Shown here: positions 11,965 through 64,000 of the stretch, in pieces
Position numbering within the stretch: the first letter of the stretch is position 1
Layout: every line of letters begins with the position of its first letter
Source of the DNA: Mobula hypostoma
Taxonomy: Eukaryota
Direction: 5' to 3'
Assembly (NCBI RefSeq): GCF_963921235.1
Contig: NC_086097.1
Coordinates: forward strand, 57,104,001 to 57,168,000
DNA length: 64,000 bases
Made by a program: the position numbers and the translations under genes
Notes under the pieces: generated by a model
The model's database searches: none
Seen by the model: the letters and a program-made list of their open reading frames with translations, nothing else
What the model was told of the DNA's origin: nothing

Positions 11965-14900
11965 CCTAGTGGAGCAGTCATCGTTGGAGTAGGCTGAGGC
12001 AGAGTAGCAAGGCTTTGGTGAGAACAGCCGGAGGCAAGGTAAGTAGGTAAGTTTATTTCTTATTTAGATCTTGAGAGAATAGGGGATATGTCTGCAGAGC
12101 CAGTGTTCTGTCCTGGGGTGTCAAATGTGGGATTTCCAGGAAACTTCCAGCCTCCCCACTGGCTATATCTGTGCCAGGTGCTTCGAGATGCAGCTCCTTA
12201 GGAACTGTGTTACGGAACTGGAGTTGCAGCTTGATGACCTTTTGGCTTGTTAGGGAAAGTGAAGCAAGGATAGATAGGAGCTACAGGGAGGTAGTCACTC
12301 CAGTTCTACAGGAGACAGGTAAATGGATGACTGTCAGGAGAGGGAAGGGAGAACGTTACATAGTGATAAGCACCCCTGTGGCCGTCCCCCTCAACAATAA
12401 GTACTCCTTTTTGAGGACTGTTGGAGGACAACCTACACGGGGGAAGCAGCAGTGGCTGTGCCTCTGGCACTGAGGCTCAGAAGGGTAGGGAACTGAAGAG
12501 GATGGCAGCAGTAATAGAGTCCTCCACAGTCAGGGGGACAGGTAGGCGATTCTGTGGACACGAAAGGGAAACATGGGTGGTAGTTTGCCTCCCAGATGCC
12601 AGGGTCTGTAATGTTTCTGGATGTGTTCTCAATATCCTGGAAAGGGAGGGTGTGCAGCTAGACAGGTAGAAAAAAGGAGGTCCTGAAAAAAGAATACAAG
12701 GAGTTAGGAAGGAAGGAAACAGAAGCAGGACCTCAAGGGTGGTTATCTCAAGATTGTTGCCTGGATAGGAATAGAATGAGGTGGCAGATAAATGTGGGGC
12801 TGAAGAATAGGAGCAGGGAGCAGGGATTCAGATTTCTGGATAATTGGGACCTCTTCTGGAGCAAGTGGGACCTGTACAAAAGGGATGGGTTGCACTTGAA
12901 TCCGAGGGGGACCAATATTCTTGCAAACAGATTTATTAGAGCTGTTGGGAGCAGTTTAAACTAATATGGCAGGGGGATGGGTACCAGTATGACAGAGCTG
13001 AGGATGAACCAGCATGTTTGTAAGTAGATGATGGGTGTAACATGAATGTAAGGAAGGACAAGCCAATGATTGGGTACAAATGCAGAGAGAGCAAAGAGTT
13101 GAATTTTGCCTCTGATACAATTTAAAAAGGCAAGAATGCAGGACTGAAGGTGTTGTATTTAAATGCACACAGCATTTGGAGTAAGGTGGACGAACTTGTG
13201 GCGCAATTAGATTGGTCGGTATGACATTATGGGCATCACTGAGTCATGGCTGAAAAAAGGACATAGTTGGGAGCTTAACAACAGAGGATATACTTTGTAT
13301 CAAAAGGAAAGGCAGAAAGGCATAGGGAGTGGTGTGGCTCTGTTGGTAAGAGATGGAATTACATCTTTAGAAAGCGGTGACATAGAGTGACAATGTTGAA
13401 TTTTTGTGGGTGAAGTTAAGAAAGGGCAAAAAAAAAATAGGAATCATATATAGGCCTCCAAATAGTAGCCAAGATGTAGGGTTGAGATTGCAAAGGGAGC
13501 TGGAAAAGTCATGTAATAGGGGTAATGACACAATTGTAATGGGGAACTTCAATATGCACAGGGATTGGGAAAATCTGGTTTGTCAGATCGCAAGAGAGGG
13601 AATTTGTTGAATGCCTACGAGATGGCTTTTTAGAGTAGCTTGTGCTTGAGCCTAATCTGAGAAAAGCTATCTTAGATCAGGTGTCGTATAATAACCCAGA
13701 TCTTATGAGGGAAATTAACGTAAAGGAACCCTTAGGAGGTAGTGATCACAATATGATTGAATTATACTGCAATTTGAGAGGGAGAAACAGAACTCACGTG
13801 TATCAGTATCACAATGGAATAAAGGGAATTATAGAGACATGAAGGAGGAGCTTGCCTATGTGGATTGGAGGAGGATGCTGGCGGGATGACAGCAGAGCAG
13901 AGATGGCTGAAGTTTCTGGGAATAGATCACAAGGTGAAGAATAGATGTATCCCACAGAGGAAGAGGTTCTCAAATGGCAGGGGTAGGCAGCCGTGGCTGA
14001 CAAAGGAAGTTAAGGACTGTATAAAAGCCAATGAAAGAGCACATAAGGTAGCAAAAGCAAGTGGAAAGTTGGATGATTGGCAAGCTTTTAAAATCCAACA
14101 GAAGGCAACTAAAAAAGCTATAACATGAAGTATGTCACTCCACTTTTTAAGAAGGGAGGAAGGCAAAAAAAAAAAGGAAATTAGGCCAGTTAGCCTAACC
14201 TCTGGTTGGGAAAATGTCGGAGTTTATCATTAAGGATGAGGTTTCCCTCTTTTTCGAGGTACTCGACAAGGTTGTCCTCTTAGTCCTTTATTATTTGATA
14301 TTGCATTAGAACCTCTTGCAATTGCCATTCGAGGATCTCCAAATATTACTGGGATAACTCGGGGCCTAAAGTCCCATAAAATATCACTCTATGCTGATGA
14401 CTTACTTTTATATATTTCTAATCCTCAAAAATCCATCCCTGCTGTTTTAGAGTTATTAGCACAATTTAGTCTCTTTTCAGGTTATAATTTAAATCTTAGT
14501 AAGAGTGAACTTTTCCCGATTAATAAACAACTTCCCTTATATCATAACTTTCCATTTAAATTGATTAATAATTATCTTTCATATCTTGGGATTAAAATTA
14601 CTTGTAAATACAAAGATTTATTTAAGATTAACTTTTTACCCTTAATTGACCATATTATTCAACTTTCATCTAAATGGTTTCCTTTATATTTAACTTTGAT
14701 TGGTCGTATTAATGCAGTTAAGATGTTTTTTTTGCCAAAATTTCTATATATATTTCAGGCATTACCAATCTTTGTCCCAAAATCTTTTTTTGATAAAGTT
14801 GACTTAAAAATTTCTTCATTTATTTGGCAAAATTAAAACCCGAGGCTGGGTAAAATACATTTACAGAAAGCTAAGAGAGATGGAGGTTTAGCATTACCTA

Positions 14901-28442: not shown

Positions 28443-30050
28443 ACCTTGGATATTTAATTCCCAATCCTGTCCGCCCCGCAACCACAGTTCTGTAATGGCC
28501 ACTAAATCACACGCCCTTGTGCTGATTTGTGCCACAAGTTCACTGACCTTGTTTCGAATACCACGGGCATTCAAATAAAGTGCCCTTACACTCATTGTAC
28601 TTTAAAAATCTTGTAATCTTGTACTCCCTTGCACTTGACTTTTCTTCACTCCACTCTCACTTTCCTCTTTTTTATCTTTTGTTTTTTCTTTATGTTTATC
28701 TACACTTTTCTACTTTACTTCTGCAATCTGTTGAACCCATTCCCCCTACTATTTAGTTTAAAGCCCTATCCACAGCCCTAGTTATGCAATTCACCAGGGT
28801 CCAGGTCCCATTATGGTTCAGGTGGAGCCCATCCCATTGGTACAGCTCCCTCCTTTTCCAATACTGATGCCAATTTCCCGTGAATTCAAACCCACTTCTC
28901 TCACACCAATCCTTGAGCCACGCATTTAACTCGCAAATCTTCTTGACATGCTAATTTGCACATGGCTCAGGTAGTGATCTAGAGATTACCACCTTTTTGG
29001 TTCTGCTTTTTAATTTAGTCCTTAGCTGCTCAAATTTCCTAAGCAGAACCTTTTCCCTCATTCTACCTGTGTCATTGGTCCCACATGTACCATGACAACT
29101 GGATTTTTCCCTTCCCGCTGCAAATTCCTCTGCAGGTCAGATAAGATGTCTCGAACCCAGGCACCAGGCAGGCAACACAGCCTTCAGGACGCTGTATCCT
29201 TGCAACAGAGAATTCTGTCTATTTCCCTGACTATGCTATCCCCAGTTACCACTACATTTCTCTTCTCTCTTCCCCTCTTTAATCACTCCCTGAACTATGG
29301 TGCCACAGTTAGGTTGCTCATCCTTCCTACAGCCCCAACTCTCATCCACACAAGGAACAAGAATCTCAGACCTGTTTGACAAGCTCAAGGGCTGAGGCTC
29401 CTCCAGCGCTGTCTCTTGGATCCCAGTACCCTCCCCACTCACAGTCATACCCTCTTGCCCCTGACCACAGACCGAATTTGAGGCAGCTAATCTAATGGCT
29501 GTGACTACCTCCTGAAACAGAGAATCGAGGTAACTCTCCCCCTTCCTGCCACAGTGTTTGAAGCTCATAATCCAGGTCTTACTTTGAGCCTGAGTTCTTG
29601 ACAAGCCAACACTTGCTGCAGATGTGGTCACCAGGAACCACAATGGGGTCCACCAGCTTCCACATCATGTAGCTGCAGCACATCACCTGATCCTGCATCA
29701 TCCCTTTATTTAATTAGCTGCAATTTAGTGTCTTTTTTTTCAACCACTAAAAAAGCCTTACCTGCTACTTACTTGTGCCTCCTTGCTGAAGCCTCTTGAG
29801 CCAAAGCCTCAAGTTCCCACTCCTACACTGGTTCACTCACACAATGGCTGCTCTGCTTTACTTTTATTTACTCCTGCTAATGAATCGCAAATCGATTGGT
29901 CCACCACTAATGCACCAAGCCCTGTGAAACGCTTCTGTTTTGAACTCTTCTCCCCAACCTCTGTGCAGCTCTCTCTCTGTGAATCAGTTGGTCTGACTCT
30001 AATGCGCTAAGCCCCGTGAAACAAAATTCTTTTGCCCGACCTGTGCGAAG
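28443..30050 (-). mobile_element. CR1 5' portion (5' UTR, ORF1, start of ORF2 APE); continues at 23900-23997
   Basis: ORF1 ends DGLHLN...VDRALN*; APE YLNARGIRNK..AITELWL..WELNIQG; EGKGGGVALLIKDEI resumes on the far side of the Rex1 element. Confidence 0.85.
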
Positions 30051-44154: not shown

Positions 44155-45071
44155 ATAACCATATAACAATTACAGCAGGGAAACAGGCCATCTCGGCCCT
44201 TCTAGTCTGTGCCGAACTGTTACTCTCACCTAGTCCCACCGACCTGCACCAAGCCCATAACCCTCCATTCCTTTCCTGTCCATATAACTATCCAATTTAA
44301 CTTTAAACTACAACATCGGACCTGCCTCAACCACTTCTGCTGGAAGCTCATTCCACACAGCTACCACTCTTTGAGTAAAGAAGTTTCCCCTCATGTTACT
44401 CCTAAACTTTTGCCCTTTAACTCTCAACTCATGTCCTCTTGTTTGAATCTCCCCCACTCTCAATGGAAAAAGCCTATCCACGCCAACTCTATCTATCCCC
44501 CTCATAATTTTAAATACCTCTATCAAGTCCCCCCTCAACCTTCTACGCTCCAAAGAATAAAGACCCAATTTGTTCAACCTTTCTCTGTAACTTAGCTGAT
44601 GAAACCCAGCTAACATTCTAGTAAATCTCCTCTGTACTCTCTCTATTTTGTTGACATCTTTCCTATAATTTGGTGACCAGAACTGTACACAATACTCCAA
44701 ATTTGGCCTTACCAATGCCTTATACAATTTCAACATTACATCCCAACTCCTATACTCAATGCTCTGATTTATAAAGGCCAGCATACCAAAAGCTTTCTTC
44801 ACCACCCTATCCACATGAGATTCCAACTTCAGGGAACTATGCACCATTATTCCTAGATCCCTCTGTTCTACTGCATTCTTCAATGCCCTACCATTTACCA
44901 TGTATGTCCTACTTTGATTAGTCCTACCAAAATGTAGCACCTCACATTTATCAGCATTAAACCCCATCTGCCATCTTTCAGCCCACTCTTCTAGCTGGCC
45001 TAAATCTCTCTGCAAGCTTTGAAAACCTACTTCATTATCCACAACTCCACCTATCTTAGTATCATCTGCAA
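44155..45071 (-). mobile_element. Young 5'-truncated CR1 (RT C-terminus open, 3' tail)
   Basis: Uninterrupted frame from ADDTKIGG through LYKALVRPNLEYCVQFWSP to FFTQRVV.VWNELP. Confidence 0.92.
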
Positions 45072-48000
45072 GGTTTAAAGTAATTTGCCAGGGGGACGAG
45101 AACCAGAGTGGTAGGAGAAGAGCTGGTTTAAAGGTAGGTACAATCTGTAGAGAGACTGTGAGGAAGGATAGGCAGTGGTTAGGGTACAATTGCACTCGGA
45201 TGGGTTGAAATATATTTACTTTAATCCGAGAAGTATCAGGAACAAAGGTGATGAACTTAGAAGGTGGATCAGTACATGGAACTATGATGTTGTGGCCATT
45301 GTGGAGACTTTGATGTCACAAGAGCAGGAATGTTCTGGGGTCTCAGATGTTTCAAAAGCGATAGGGAGAGATGTAAAAGAGGTGTGAGAGTGGCATTGCT
45401 AATCAAGTATAGTATCAAAGCTGCAGAAAAGAAGGACCTCGTGGAGGGATGATTTACTGACTCAATATGGGTGGAAGTCGGAAACAGGAAGGGAGCAATT
45501 ACTCGGTTGGGAGTTTTCTATAGGCCTCCCAGTAGCAACAGGGACAGTGAAGAGCAGATCAGTAGGTAGAATTTAGAAAGATGTGAAAATAATGGTTGTT
45601 GTCATAGGAGACTTCAACTACCTTAATATTGATTGGAACCTCTTCAGTATGAGATGGGGCAGAATTTGTTAGATGTGTCCAAATAGGATTCCTGACACAC
45701 AATATGTGGACAGGCTGATGAGAGAAGAGGCCATACTGGATCGAGCAGTAGTAAAAAACCTGGTGAGATGCCAGCACCCTCTGTGGATGAGCGTTTCAGA
45801 GATAGTGATCATAGCTCCTTAGCTTTTAGCATAGCCTTGGATAGGGGTAGGTGCAGACAGTATGGAAAAGTGTTAATTTGGGGGGAAGACTAATTATGCT
45901 ATTAAACTGTAACTTGGAAGTGTAAATTGGGAACAGATGTCTCTGAAAAATGTACAATAGAAATGTGCATGTTGTTTAGGAAGTGCTTACATGGGGTTCT
46001 GAGTAGGTCTGTCCCATTCAGGCATGGAACCATAAGTGAAGGAACCATGGAAGAAGGATAGAAGAAGGAACATACTTGAGGTTTAGTCAGGACTCTTCAT
46101 AGTTAAAAGTTAGCCAGGAAAGAGCTTGGACTTAGGAGAGCTAGAAGCGGACATAAGAAGGCCTTGGCCAATAGAATTAAGGAAACCCCAAGGTGTTTTA
46201 CACATGTAAAGAACTGAATGAAGACTGTAAGACTGATCAGAGATAAAGGAGGAAATATGCCTGGAGTTGGAGGGAGTCAGGGAGGTCTTTAATGAATATT
46301 TTGCTTCAGTATTCATCAGTGAGAGAGATCTTGACATATGTGAGGTCAGTACAGAACGGGCTAATATGCTGGAACATGTTGTGGTTAAGGAAGAGGATGA
46401 TTTGGAACTTTTGAAAAATATTAGGATGGATGAGTCCCTGAGGCAGGATGGAATATATCCTAGGTTACTAGTGAAGAGGGAAAAGATTGCTTGGAAGTTG
46501 ATGATGATCTTTGCTTCTTCACTACTCACTGGATTAGTAGCAGAAGATTGGAGGATGGCAAATGTTATTCCTTTTTTTCAAGAAAGATAATAGGGATAAT
46601 CCTGGGAATTATAGACCAGTGAGTCTTGGAGAAAGAGATACAATTTACAAGCACTTGGAGAAGCATTGTCTGATTAGAGATATTCAGTGTTGCTTTAAGA
46701 GGGGCAAGTCAGACCTCATGAGCCTGATGGACTTTTCTGAGAAAGTGACTAAATTAATTAAGGTAGAGCAGTGGATGTAGTATGTATAGATTTTATTATG
46801 GCGTTCAAGCAGTTTCCTTTTGGTAGTCTTATTCAGAGGTCTGGGGGCAAATAATCCAGTGAAACTTCGTTGTGTGGACTCAGAATTAGCTTGCTCACAG
46901 AAGGCAGAGTGTGGTAGTAGATGGAGTGTATTCTGCTTGGAGGACCGTAACTACTGGTGTTCTGCAGGGATCTGTCCTGGGACCACTGCTCCTTGTGATT
47001 TTTTATAAATGACTTGGATGAGGAAGTGGAATGGTATGTTGATAAGTTGGCAGATGATGAGAAGGTTGGTAGTGTTGTACATAGAGTAGAAGGTTGTCAT
47101 AGGTTGCAACAGGACATTGATAGGATGGAGAGCTGGGTTGAGAAAAGGCAGATGGATTTCAGTCTTGGAAAATGTGAAGTTATTAAGATCTAACGAAGGC
47201 AGAGTACAAGGTTAATGATAGGATTTTTAACACTGTGGAGGAACAGAGCAGAGGTTTCTTGAGGTTCAAGTCCATAGATTTCTCAAAGTTGCCATGCAAG
47301 TTGTTAGGAAGGTTAAGAAGGTAAGTGGTATGTTGGCCTTCATTAGTTGGGGGCGGGGTGAGTTCAAGAATCACGAGGTAATGTTGCAGCTCTGTGAATC
47401 TCTTGTTAGAGTACACTTGGAGTATGTGTTCAGTTCTGGTTACCTCGTTATAGGAAGGCTTTGGAATATTTAGAAAGGGTGCAGAGGAGATGTATTAGGA
47501 TATTGCCTGGATTAGAGAGCATGTCTTATGAGGAAAGATTGAGCACGTTAGGGCTTTTGTCATTGCAGCAAGGGAGGATGAGAGACAACTAGACAGAAGT
47601 ATATAAGATGGTGAGAGGCATAGATAGAGAGGACAGCTAGCACCTTTATATGGTTCCTTAAGATTGTCATAGTCAGGGGAAGTAGTGGGGATAAGCTCCA
47701 CTACCTACTAAATGCTCCCAATGGTGTGCATCTCAAATAGACTCTTTCCTAACTTCTGGTTTAAGATGGTGCTGGTAAAGCACAGTGATGACTTGCTGGT
47801 AACAAACAAAAGTATAAGTTACTGTATTAATCAGACTTTTTCCTCAGATACGATCACTGCAATCAATAGCCTGTAACTTCCCTTTCAGAGTTGAGCTTTT
47901 GAACCACCTGGCATTTTTGTAGTGTGAATTGAAGTCTTGAATGTGCAGCAGTGAAGCTGTCAGGGCCCAAGGCGAGGGACAGGCCCGGTGTTCAGCTCAC

Positions 48001-59404: not shown

Positions 59405-60282
59405 GTATTTTTTAAATTCATTTTCCATGGTTTGGGCATTGATGGCAAGGAGAGTATTTATTACCTATCTCTGATTAATCTTGGGAAGGTGATGGTGAGC
59501 TGCTACTTTAAAACTAGTTTGGTGAATGTAAGATCTAGGATTTGAACCCTGTAACACTGAAGGACAAGTCATATATTTCAAAATAAGAAAAATGTTTGAC
59601 TTGAATGGAAACTGCAGGTAGGTATTCCAATCTGGTTATTGTCCTGATTTGAGAGGTAAGGGTTGCTGTAACCTGGTGGTGTTCCTGTGGAGCATTTTGT
59701 ATCCTGTGCCACTAAGGATGTGAGTGATTTAGGGTGGTTAATGAGCTGCCACTTAAATGTATAATTTCTTTCTTGGGTGCTGTTGAGCTTCTTGAAATTG
59801 GAGCTGCTTTCATCCAGACAAGTGGAGAGTATGGCATCAGACTCGTGAGTTGCAGCATCTGTTGAGGCAAAGGATGTAAATTGACACTTTGACACTGTGT
59901 CAGGACTGAGTGGAAAGAGGAAAGATTGCCAGCACATAGCAGTAAGTGGAAGGGTGGATGGGATAGATACTGATAGGTGAGGATAGTTAGTTGATAGTTA
60001 GGTGGAATGGAGTGAGAAGACAGATGGGAGAGGGGAACAAAGGAACAAGAAAACTAGGTGGTTAGGTAACTTTGTGTGAAAAGAGAACACCAGGGTGTGT
60101 GGTACCCAAAATTGGAGAATACATTATTCATGCCATTAAGCCATTCAAATGGTGTATATGATGTTCTTCTAATTTATATTGGATTTTCCAATTTAAATTT
60201 TACTTTGTTGTACAGTGATTTGTTTCCAGTGAATTTAAAGGGATTGGAAAACTGAGACCCTGAGAGTTTGGAGGGAATGTAT

Positions 60283-63200
60283 ATAGAACATATAGAATAG
60301 TACAGCACAGTACAGGCCCTTTGGCCCACAATGTTGTGCCGACCCTCAAACCCTGCCTCCCATATAAGCCCCCACCTTAAATTCCTCCATATACCTGTCT
60401 AGCAGTCTCTTAAACTTCACTAGTGTATCTGCCTCCACCACTGACTCAAGCAGTGCATTCCACGCACCAACCACTCTCTGAGTAAAAAACCTTCCTCTAA
60501 TATCCCCCTTGAACTTCCCACCCCTTACCTTAAAGCCATGTCCTCTTCAACTGAGCAGTGGTGCCCTGGGGAAGAGGCGCTGGCTATCCACTCTATCTAT
60601 TCCTCTTATTATCTTGTACACCTCTATCATGTCTCCTCTCATCCTCCTTCTCTCCAAAGAGTAAAGCCCTAGCTCCCTTAATCTCTGATCATAATGCATA
60701 CTTTCTAAACCAGGCAGCATCCTGGTAAATCTCCTCTGTACCCTTTCCAATGCTTCCACAACCTTCCTATAGTGAGGTGACCAGAACTGGACACGGTACT
60801 CCAAGTGTGGCCTAACCAGAGTTTTATAGAGCTGCATCATTACATCGCGACTCTTAAACTCTATCCCTCGACTTATGAAAGCTAACACCCCATAAGCTTT
60901 CTTAAGTACCCTATCCACCTGTGAGGCAACTTTCAGGGATCTGTGGACATGTACCCTGAGATCCCTCTGCTCCTCCACACTACCAAATATCCTGCCATTT
61001 ACTTTGTACTCTGCCTTGGAGTTTGTCCTTCCAAAGTGTACCACCTCACACTTCTCCGGGTTGAACTCCATCTGCCACTTCTCAGCCCACTTCTTCATCC
61101 CATCAATGTCCCTCTGCAATCTTCGACAATCCTCAACACTATCTACAACACCACCAACCTTTGTGTCGTCTGCAAACTTGCCAACCCACCCTTCTACCCC
61201 CACATCTAGGTCGTTAATAAAAATCACGAAAAGTAGAGGTCTCAGATCAGATCCTTGTGGGACACCACTAGTCACAATCCTCCAATCTGAATGTACTCCC
61301 TCCACCACCACCCTCTGCCTTCTGCAGGCAAGCCAATTCTGAATCCACCTGGCCAAACTTCCTTGGATCCCATGCCTTCTAACTTTCTGAATAAGCCTAC
61401 CATGTGGAACCTTGTCAAATGCCTTACTAAAATCCATATAGATCATATCCACTGCACTACCCTCATCTATATGCCTGGTCACCTCCTCAAAGAACTCTAT
61501 CAGGCTTGTTAGACACGATCTGCCCTTCACAAAGCCATGCTGACTGTCCCTGATCAGACCATGATTCTCTAAATGCCTACAGATCCTATCTAAGAATCTT
61601 TTCCAACAGCTTTCCCACCACAGACGTAAGGCTCACTGGTCTATAATTACCTGGACTATCCCTACTACCTTTTTTGAACAAAGGAACAACACACGCCTCC
61701 CTCCAATCCTCCAGTACCATTCCCATGGACAACGAGGACATAAAGATCCTAGCCAGAGGCTCAGCAATCTCTTCTCTCACCTCGTGGAGCAGCCTGGGGA
61801 ATATTCCGTCAGGTCCCGGTGACTTATCTGTCCTAATGTATTTTAACAACTCCAACACCTCCTCTCCCTTAATATCAACATGCTCCAGAACATCAACCTC
61901 ACTCATATTGTCCTCACCGTCATCAAGTTCCCTCTCATTGGTGAATACCGAAGAGAAGTATTCATTGAGGACCTCGCTCACTTCCACAGCCTCCAGGCAC
62001 ATCTTCCCACCTTTATCTCTAATCAGTCCTACCTTCACTCCTGTCATCCTTTTTTTCTTCACATAACTGAAGAATGCCTTGGGGTTTTCCTTTACCCTAC
62101 TCGCCAAGGCCTTCTCATGCCCCCTTCTTGCTCTTCTCAGCCCCTTCTTAAGTTCCTTTCTTGCTTCCCTATATTCCTCAATAGACCCATCTGATCCTTG
62201 CTTCCTAAACCTCATGTATGCTGCCTTCTTCCACCTGACTAGATTTTCCACCTCACTTGTCACCCATGGTTCCTTCATCCTACCATTCTTTATCTTCCTC
62301 ACCGGGACAAATTTATCCCTTACATCCCGCAAGAGATCTCTAAACATCGACCACATCTCCATAGTACATTTCCCTGCAAAAACATCATCCCAATTCACAC
62401 CCGCAAGTTCTAGCCGTATAGCCTCATAACTTGCCCTTTCCCAATTAAAAATTTTCCTGTCCTCTTTGATTCTATACTTTTCCATGATAATTATAAAGGC
62501 CAGGGAGCGGTGGTCACTGTCCTGCAGATGCTCACCCACTGAGAGATCTGTGACCTGACCCGGTTTATTACCTAGTACTAGATCTGGTATGGCATTCCCC
62601 CTGGTCGGCCTGTCCACATACTGTGACAGGAATCCATCCTGGACACACTTAACAAATTCTGCCCCATCTAAACCCTTGGAACTAATCAGGTGCCAATCAA
62701 TATTAGGGAAGTTAAAGTCACCCATGATAACAACCCTGTTATTTTTGCACCTTTCCAAAATCTGCCTCCCAATCTGCTCCTCTGTATCTCTGCTGCTACC
62801 AGGGGACCTATAGAATACCCCCAGTAGAGTAACTGCTCCCTTCCTGTTCCTGACTTCCACCCATATTGACTCAAAAGAGGATCCTGCTACATTACCCACC
62901 CTTTCTGTAGCTGTAATAGTATCCCTGACCAGTAATGCCACCCTTCCTCCCCTTTTTCCGCCCTCTCTATCCCTTTTAAAGCACTGAAATCCAGGAATAT
63001 TGAGAATCCATTCCTGCCCTGGTGCTAGCCAAGTCTCTGTAATGGCCACTACGTCATAATTCCGTGTATGTATCCAAGCTCTCAGTGCATCACCTTTATT
63101 TCTGATGCTTCTTGCATTGAGGTACACACATTTCAGCCCTTCTACCTTACTGTCTTTACACCGTTTATTCTGCTTCTCTTTCCTCAAACCCTCTCTGTAT

Positions 63201-64000
63201 GTTAGATCTGGCTTTACTCCATGCACTTCTTTCACCGCTCTATCGCTCTGGGTCCCATCCCCCTCGCAAATTAGTTTAAACCCTCCCAAACCATGCTAGC
63301 AAACCCACCTGCAAGGATATTGCTCCCCCTCGAGTTCAGGTGCAACCCATCCAATCTGTACAGGTTCCACCTTCTCCAGAAGAGATCCCAATGATCTAAA
63401 AATCTAAAACCCTGCTCCCTGCACCAACTCCTCAGCCACGCATTCAACTGCCATCTCCTCCAATTCTTACCATCTCTGTCACGTAGCACTGGCAGCAATC
63501 CTGAGAACGTCACCCTTGAGGTCCTGTTCTTCAGCCTTCTACCTAATTCCCAAAACTCATCCCTCTTCCTGCCTATGTCATTGGTCCCAACATGTATTAC
63601 GACTTCTGGTTGCTTTCCCTCTCGTACCAGGATGTCGTGCACCCGGTCAGAGACATCCCGGACCCTGGCACCCAGGAGGCAACAAACCATGCGGATGTCC
63701 TTCTCACGTCCACAAAATCTCCTGTCTGCTCCCCTGATTATAGAGTCTCCAATGACGACAGCTCTCCTCTTCTCCGTCCCACTCCTCTGCACCACAGGGT
63801 CAGACTCAGTGCCGGAGGCCCTGCCACCGTGGCTCACATCTGGTTGGTCGTCCCCGCCAACAGTATCCAGGATGGTAAACTTATTATTCAGGGGAATGGC
63901 TACAGGGGTGCTCTGCATTACCTGTCTGCTCACCTTCGCTTTTTCCTCCTCTGACTGTCACCCAACGACCTGCTTCTGACAGCCTAGGTGTGACTACCTC
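60283..64000 (-). mobile_element. Young near-intact CR1 LINE: ORF1 (SGNH esterase, ending at 63271) and ORF2 APE-RT (63289-60547, frameshift near 61590); the 5' end runs off the window
   Basis: ORF1 GDSIIRG / HVGTNDI / DGLHLN; ORF2 YLNARS, AITETWL, GDFN, SDH, NYRPVSLTS, YMDFSKAFDKVPH, GVPQGS, FADD; CTATT/CTATGTT-type 3' tail. Confidence 0.96.

Follow-up and report, generated by a model that had tools for sequence, protein, structure and literature searches.

A near full-length, dead LINE lies on the minus strand at the right end of the window, by which we mean the whole 64-kb stretch of DNA analysed here, much of which is taken up by CR1 sequence. The locus raises the question of how ribosomes reach ORF2, which encodes the endonuclease and reverse transcriptase (RT). 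The reviews consulted treat the translation of LINE ORF2 as unsettled, and the tested cases, SART1 and L1, rely on re-initiation. A first-pass annotation of this DNA had proposed that a −1 programmed frameshift at a U_UUA_AAC heptamer joins ORF1 to an ORF2 lacking an AUG. We conclude that the junction is a real, deeply conserved candidate recoding site, and comparative sequence evidence leads us to place the probability of a programmed −1 frameshift that gives an ORF1–ORF2 fusion at about 0.65. This is the best explanation of the junction, but the arguments drawn in that annotation from the missing AUG and from a G-rich tract proved weaker than stated.

The CR1 element and its ORF1/ORF2 junction

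ORF1 of the element contains an SGNH esterase domain (PF13472; PDB 4C1B), and ORF2 contains an APE endonuclease and RT (PF03372, PF14529 and PF00078, with a match to the L1 endonuclease); the features are listed in Table 1. Among named proteins, the closest matches come from rays (Mobula; as high as 93% for ORF2). The copy is called dead because its frames are broken, in ORF1 near 63930 and in ORF2 near 61600. Its probable assignment to CR1 rests on the esterase ORF1, on RT identity (51% across 183 aa) with an element of a swallow, the ORF1 of which groups with that of the window CR1 family, and on motifs that we take to be of CR1 type. The short-repeat tail is like CR1 octamer tails. An esterase (type IV) ORF1 followed by an APE–RT ORF2 is shared with vertebrate CR1 subgroup 7 as described by Metcalfe and Casane (2014; PMC4120745), a paper whose main text nowhere uses the term ‘frameshift’.

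Table 1. Features of the CR1 element at the right end of the window and of the three other CR1 junctions (window coordinates).
Feature	Position	Strand	Remarks
CR1 ORF1, 3' part, with SGNH esterase domain	63271..63957	−	PF13472, E 6e-12; PDB 4C1B, E 2e-40 with A1 profile
ORF1, remainder past the frame break near 63930, as far as the window edge		−	
ORF2, APE endonuclease and start of RT region	61586..63139	−	PF03372; first in-frame ATG 62725
ORF2, RT, beyond the frame break in the window-end copy	60547..61632	−	PF00078
Element 3' UTR and short-repeat tail	60281..60345	−	read from sequence
Putative slippery heptamer U_UUA_AAC in ORF1 register	63274..63280	−	directly before UAA; no variant among 40 of 54 variant rows, three runs
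Overlapping second heptamer G_GGU_UUA	63277..63283	−	not conserved; residue ahead of Leu-Asn varies
ORF1 stop UAA overlapping near-cognate AUU of the ORF2 frame (UAAUU)	63269..63273	−	sister subfamily has Met at the same codon
G-rich tract, candidate stimulator	63254..63264	−	9 nt after heptamer; codes Glu/Gln-Gly-Asp-Gly in ORF2 frame
Poorly conserved ORF2-frame linker, slip site to endonuclease	63140..63280	−	about 47 codons
Second CR1 junction, other subfamily	12955..12981	+	same heptamer, UAA and G-tract; ATA after FKL
Third CR1 junction, distant subfamily	28736..28762	−	same heptamer, UAA and G-tract; codons 4–5 without near-cognate
Fourth junction, 5' break of rearranged copy	45074..45100	+	last base of heptamer G instead of C

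On the minus strand, 63286–63271 reads GAG GGT TTA AAC TAA, which places UUUAAAC in the X_XXY_YYZ register of ORF1. ORF2 is open across this site in the −1 frame, from 63295, with a TAG just ahead, to 61586. Its first in-frame ATG (IMGDFN) lies two-thirds of the way into the endonuclease, at the position of residue 143 when aligned with the human L1 enzyme; a product begun there would miss the stretch with the equivalents of the catalytic residues N14, E43 and Y115. In the register of the heptamer, the open −1 frame, the late first AUG and the G-rich tract 9 nt downstream, the sequence agrees with the first-pass annotation, to which we add the overlapping G_GGU_UUA, the near-cognate AUU at the stop and the fact that the copy is dead. 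Nine out-of-frame AUGs separate the ORF1 stop from the first in-frame AUG; the first of them, in strong context, is 12 nt past the stop, and an out-of-frame AUG lies inside the G-rich tract at 63258. The pattern TTTAAACTAR occurs four times in the window against 0.64 expected, a count reached in none of 100 shuffles, and three of the four occurrences are exact CR1 ORF1 ends.

Conservation in DNA and in ORF1 proteins

Four CR1 junctions in the window were located by protein match and not by motif. The exact heptamer is present in three, and the fourth is off by a single base, the G for C being likely decay. In all four the G-rich tract stands at the same spacing and ORF2 is in the −1 frame. The three intact junction copies are 60–71% alike upstream of the junction and 54–57% downstream. 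The fourth belongs to a pair of CR1 pieces in opposite orientation, 44464–45075 (−) and 45072–47645 (+), which meet exactly at the ORF1/ORF2 junction, an arrangement that could stem from a 5' inversion or from a nested insertion broken at the slip site.

We then compared close relatives of the window-end copy in 8483, 9630 and 9483 contigs from three runs (X1, X2 and X9 among those named; run X24, with 6 reads, was left out). None of 40 of the 54 variant rows falls within 63267–63286 or 63250–63264, the intervals that hold the heptamer, the stop, the AUU codon and the G-rich tract; the spacer bases 63265–63266 and the flanks do vary among these contigs. No A>C change is present anywhere in runs X1 and X2, and the single one in X9 lies outside the 40 rows. 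An AUG at the AUU codon is therefore absent from the family at a level of 4% or more in X1 and X2, and the AUU is not a decayed AUG. Loose contig ends in these runs start just beyond the G-rich tract, which suggests that other subfamilies have the junction in common and diverge past the tract.

A motif scan of metagenomes, covering 60 of about 160 stretches, left 14 CR1-like loci of bird type (11 of them with a tblastn match) after 46 stretches had been discarded as unrelated; because these loci were selected on the motif, they show its presence and not its frequency. With that reservation, the site appears conserved beyond coding need: the bird-type copies carry the same junction nucleotides as the window copies, and upstream of the junction the two agree at 8 of 33 conserved Leu codons and at 207 of 548 third positions. 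In four of these loci the match to ORF1 runs up to the final base of the heptamer and no further. Three queries from ORF1 and one from ORF2 brought up no unselected junction DNA in viral contigs, and nine esterase matches in prokaryote genomes were set aside as weak. About 30 of the metagenome loci (L001–L059) are chance pattern matches in AT-rich contigs that finish in GGGGATT-type repeats and are probably either telomere-like sequence or the ends of assemblies.

At the protein level, 31 close ORF1 proteins extend to the last helix, and 29 of them terminate in Leu-Asn; the residues ahead of this pair vary, and the terminal Asn is invariant in alignment A1. A distant set consisted of the best 150 of 8446 representatives, 107 of which reach the last helix. 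Here Leu-Asn ends 55 proteins, Gly-Asn 10 and Lys-Asn three, in total 68 of 107 against 1.3% from composition, the A1 profile itself ending in Leu-Asn and perhaps slightly favouring such proteins; the proteins are related and the counts not independent, and we claim no p-value. The other 39 have different ends. The Leu-Asn end is kept although its distance to the catalytic His ranges from 21 to 35 residues, and its named hosts include rays, a shark, a sturgeon, an eel, frogs, turtles, lizards and a swallow. In a quick tree of 102 of the 107 proteins, Leu-Asn ends 34 of 38 in the clade with named vertebrate proteins and recurs in two other clades. None of the eight proteins of a clade with tails resembling PDB 4C1B, which we take to be the ORF1 of a zebrafish L2 element, has a Leu-Asn, Gly-Asn or Lys-Asn end, and the esterase fold therefore does not need them; this clade likely comprises L2-type esterases.

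U_UUA_AAC, A_AAA_AAC and G_GGA_AAC are named among the shiftiest heptamers in the part of a 2016 frameshift review covered here (PMC5009743). The three kinds of end would match the Leu, Gly and Lys encoded by the UUA, GGA and AAA of these heptamers, the Gly-Asn and Lys-Asn cases being read from protein alone. Some distant ORF1 proteins without an Asn end have Lys-Asn, Phe-Phe or Gly-Phe-Leu a few residues ahead of the stop (P0119, P0120, P0169, P0178 and P0185; P0093, P0140, P0159 and P0164); these may point to internal slip sites of a different type, or have arisen by chance.

The motif might be kept for a reason other than decoding, either because the C-terminal Leu-Asn matters to ORF1p or because the site is an RNA or DNA element for packaging or ORF1p binding, with ORF2 expressed by another route. 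The invariant Asn, a short palindrome within the site and the failure of folding to find a stimulator structure (see below) are consistent with this. We nevertheless consider it improbable, as codon choice is fixed at the site whereas that of upstream Leu codons is not, the Leu-Asn end is tied to the stop and not to the fold, the likely L2-type esterases lack such an end, and ORF2 is at −1 in every window junction.

Frameshift or restart at the stop codon

We favour a −1 frameshift because of the fit of register and frame, the shiftiness of the heptamer, and its conservation in the window, in relatives, in bird-type copies and in protein ends. It is further supported by the out-of-frame AUGs that precede the first in-frame AUG, and by the AUU of the window-end family not being a decayed AUG. 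A fraction of ribosomes would slip by −1 on U_UUA_AAC to make an ORF1p–linker–endonuclease–RT fusion in the style of Gag–Pol, and most would stop at UAA and release ORF1p. The adjacent stop and the G-rich tract would stimulate slippage, and the fusion might be loaded into ORF1p oligomers. The variable linker, which puts tens of residues ahead of the endonuclease, would suit a fusion. Counting against a frameshift are the lack of a stable or conserved downstream structure, the sister subfamilies with a junction AUG and the 39 distant proteins with other ends. Natural in-frame ORF1–ORF2 fusions were absent from the three longer matches, which is weak evidence.

Ribosomes might instead terminate at UAA and restart on an overlapping AUG or near-cognate codon, AUU in the window-end copy, with the help of the G-rich tract, thereby making free ORF2p as in SART1. 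We judge this unlikely as the sole route, though it has substantial evidence in its favour. In one stingray protein the junction is translated as FKLMWQGDG, in which the Met is codon 4 of the ORF2 frame and overlaps the ORF1 stop, and another stingray protein starts at that Met (P0305, P0306; also P0218); we therefore infer UAAUG for this sister subfamily. AUU or AUA occupies the same codon in three of the four window junctions. Among the 14 bird-type loci, codon 5 is ATG, two bases past the stop, in three and TTG or GTG in six, hence nine of 14; it is TTC or TTT in four and GCA in one. Gene calls for P0211 and P0222 begin at the G-D/E-G motif. There are precedents in SART1, with UAAUG, and in L1, where any sense codon can stand in for the AUG of ORF2, according to the part of the L1 study covered here (PMC1965478).

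This tolerance and the AUGs of sister subfamilies mean that lack of an AUG does not by itself force a frameshift. The first-pass annotation had argued that re-initiation could not give an intact endonuclease, and had named a conserved in-frame AUG upstream of the APE domain as a finding that would speak against its proposal, one that sister subfamilies bear out in part. Its argument stands for the window-end family, which has no such AUG; it fails for the stingray proteins and the three bird-type loci with in-frame ATGs, and is weakened by the L1 precedent.

Restart leaves unexplained why the heptamer is fixed at synonymous sites upstream of the stop, why protein ends switch between Leu-, Gly- and Lys-Asn, and why out-of-frame AUGs stand beside the stop. 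With seven of the 16 possible codons after UAA being AUG or near-cognate, chance alone would often place one there. None is present at codon 5 of one bird-type group (TTC, three loci) or at codons 4–5 of the third window junction. In the second window junction an out-of-frame AUG one base past the stop would divert restart, and in ORF2 homologues the starts assigned by gene callers vary in place and share no conserved Met. Frameshift and restart could both act in subfamilies with a junction AUG, which may make free ORF2p in addition to the fusion.

Even less probable, in our estimation, is that ORF2 is reached by scanning re-initiation, by internal initiation at a downstream near-cognate codon, or by splicing. 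The linker does contain near-cognate codons (GTG at 63235 and 63226, CTG at 63136), and the portions of reviews covered leave ORF2 initiation open. Yet the nine out-of-frame AUGs would capture scanning ribosomes, the CTG is CTA in about 98% of the depth of run X9, and the heptamer goes unexplained by scanning or internal initiation. All readings other than frameshift or restart alone have, taken together, a small chance of being correct.

The consensus −1 signal is an X_XXY_YYZ heptamer plus a downstream structure, as stated in the part of PMC3542737 covered. Folding of single copies and of the four-junction alignment yielded no stimulatory structure 5–9 nt downstream, only the linear G-rich tract being conserved. 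Single-copy folds were no better than shuffles (z −0.4 to −1.5 at the 63280 junction; +0.7 and −0.7 in the other two copies), the consensus fold was empty (−0.2 kcal/mol), G-quadruplex prediction on the downstream sequence found none, and Rfam returned nothing relevant, with one chance match (E 0.25). The stimulator envisaged in the first-pass annotation is thus conserved as a tract, but forms neither a predicted G-quadruplex nor a conserved fold. A C-rich ORF1 site (A-I/V-P-L codons; 63889–63899, −) about 600 nt upstream can pair over 10 bp with the tract, and an equivalent site lies about 580 nt upstream of the 12955 (+) junction, two one-sided changes keeping the pairing; in these two ray subfamilies one of 25 and none of 25 shuffles did as well. 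This long-range pairing was rejected, being absent in the third copy and without a consistent place in the 14 bird-type loci.

That no pseudoknot was found is not fatal to a frameshift. According to the 2016 review, −1 shifting is stimulated in arteriviruses by proteins and can be stimulated in pea enation mosaic virus by a stop adjoining the shift site; the same review knew of no natural G-quadruplex stimulator.

Relation to known systems

In Dictyostelium TRE5-A and TRE3-A, ORF2 is stated to need a −1 frameshift in a figure legend of PMC5911963; the text of PMC5006619 consulted, also on TRE elements, does not contain this statement. Like the CR1 element, these are APE-type LINEs. They belong to another LINE group and host kingdom, have no esterase ORF1 described, and are known to us from the review statement. 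SART1, in the part of its source covered, uses stop–restart at UAAUG dependent on a downstream RNA element. It resembles CR1 as a non-LTR element whose stop overlaps the ORF2 frame in the same geometry; the window-end family differs in its UAAUU, in the conservation of a slippery heptamer and in the long linker that precedes its endonuclease.

The −1 frameshifts of retroviruses, LTR elements and coronaviruses resemble the CR1 junction in the U_UUA_AAC heptamer and its register, in the fusion of a structural protein to a polymerase and in a conserved element 9 nt downstream. CR1 is unlike them in that no pseudoknot or stem-loop was found, in the stop directly after the heptamer and in being a non-LTR LINE. 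In arteriviruses, nsp1beta and PCBP bind to a short linear motif located some 10 nt past the shift site. The resulting nsp2 frameshift, stimulated by protein in trans, is an analogy only, as the CR1 motif is G-rich and a binding protein hypothetical.

−1 shifting has thus been stated already for TRE LINEs. The CR1 claim is new as far as we have searched: it was not found in the literature covered, which excludes two 1997 CR1 papers and Kojima 2005, any of which may already raise the idea. ‘CR1’ is absent from the part of the 2016 review covered (PMC5009743), and ‘frameshift’ from the main text of the LINE papers searched by term, in one of which ‘frame-shift’ refers solely to mutations.

In the chicken, CR1 is the main family of LINEs, according to the source consulted. 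If the proposed frameshift is real, CR1 ORF2p would be an ORF1 fusion, present gene models beginning at internal Mets would be in error, and the G-rich tract would count as an unusual stimulator. With a slip site conserved in this way, the translation of LINE ORF2 becomes testable in a reporter of 150 nt. A broader proposal, which we put forward tentatively and think unlikely to hold in full, is that all esterase-type CR1 elements across jawed vertebrates, together with distant relatives that changed to G_GGA_AAC or A_AAA_AAC, produce their polymerase as a Gag–Pol-like −1 fusion. The stimulus would come not from a pseudoknot but from the neighbouring stop codon and from a linear, G-rich motif 9 nt downstream, which might be bound by protein or form a small G-quadruplex; this would be a new class of natural stimulator.

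Several NCBI ray gene models named as host genes incorporate CR1 fragments (P0010, P0021, P0038, P0043, P0045 and P0224), the names including ribosomal protein S24, TMEM204 and GPR139. Two further CR1 proteins, P0017 and P0209, are filed under Pseudomonas aeruginosa and Carnobacterium maltaromaticum on contigs of 3–4 kb, likely through contamination from fish hosts.
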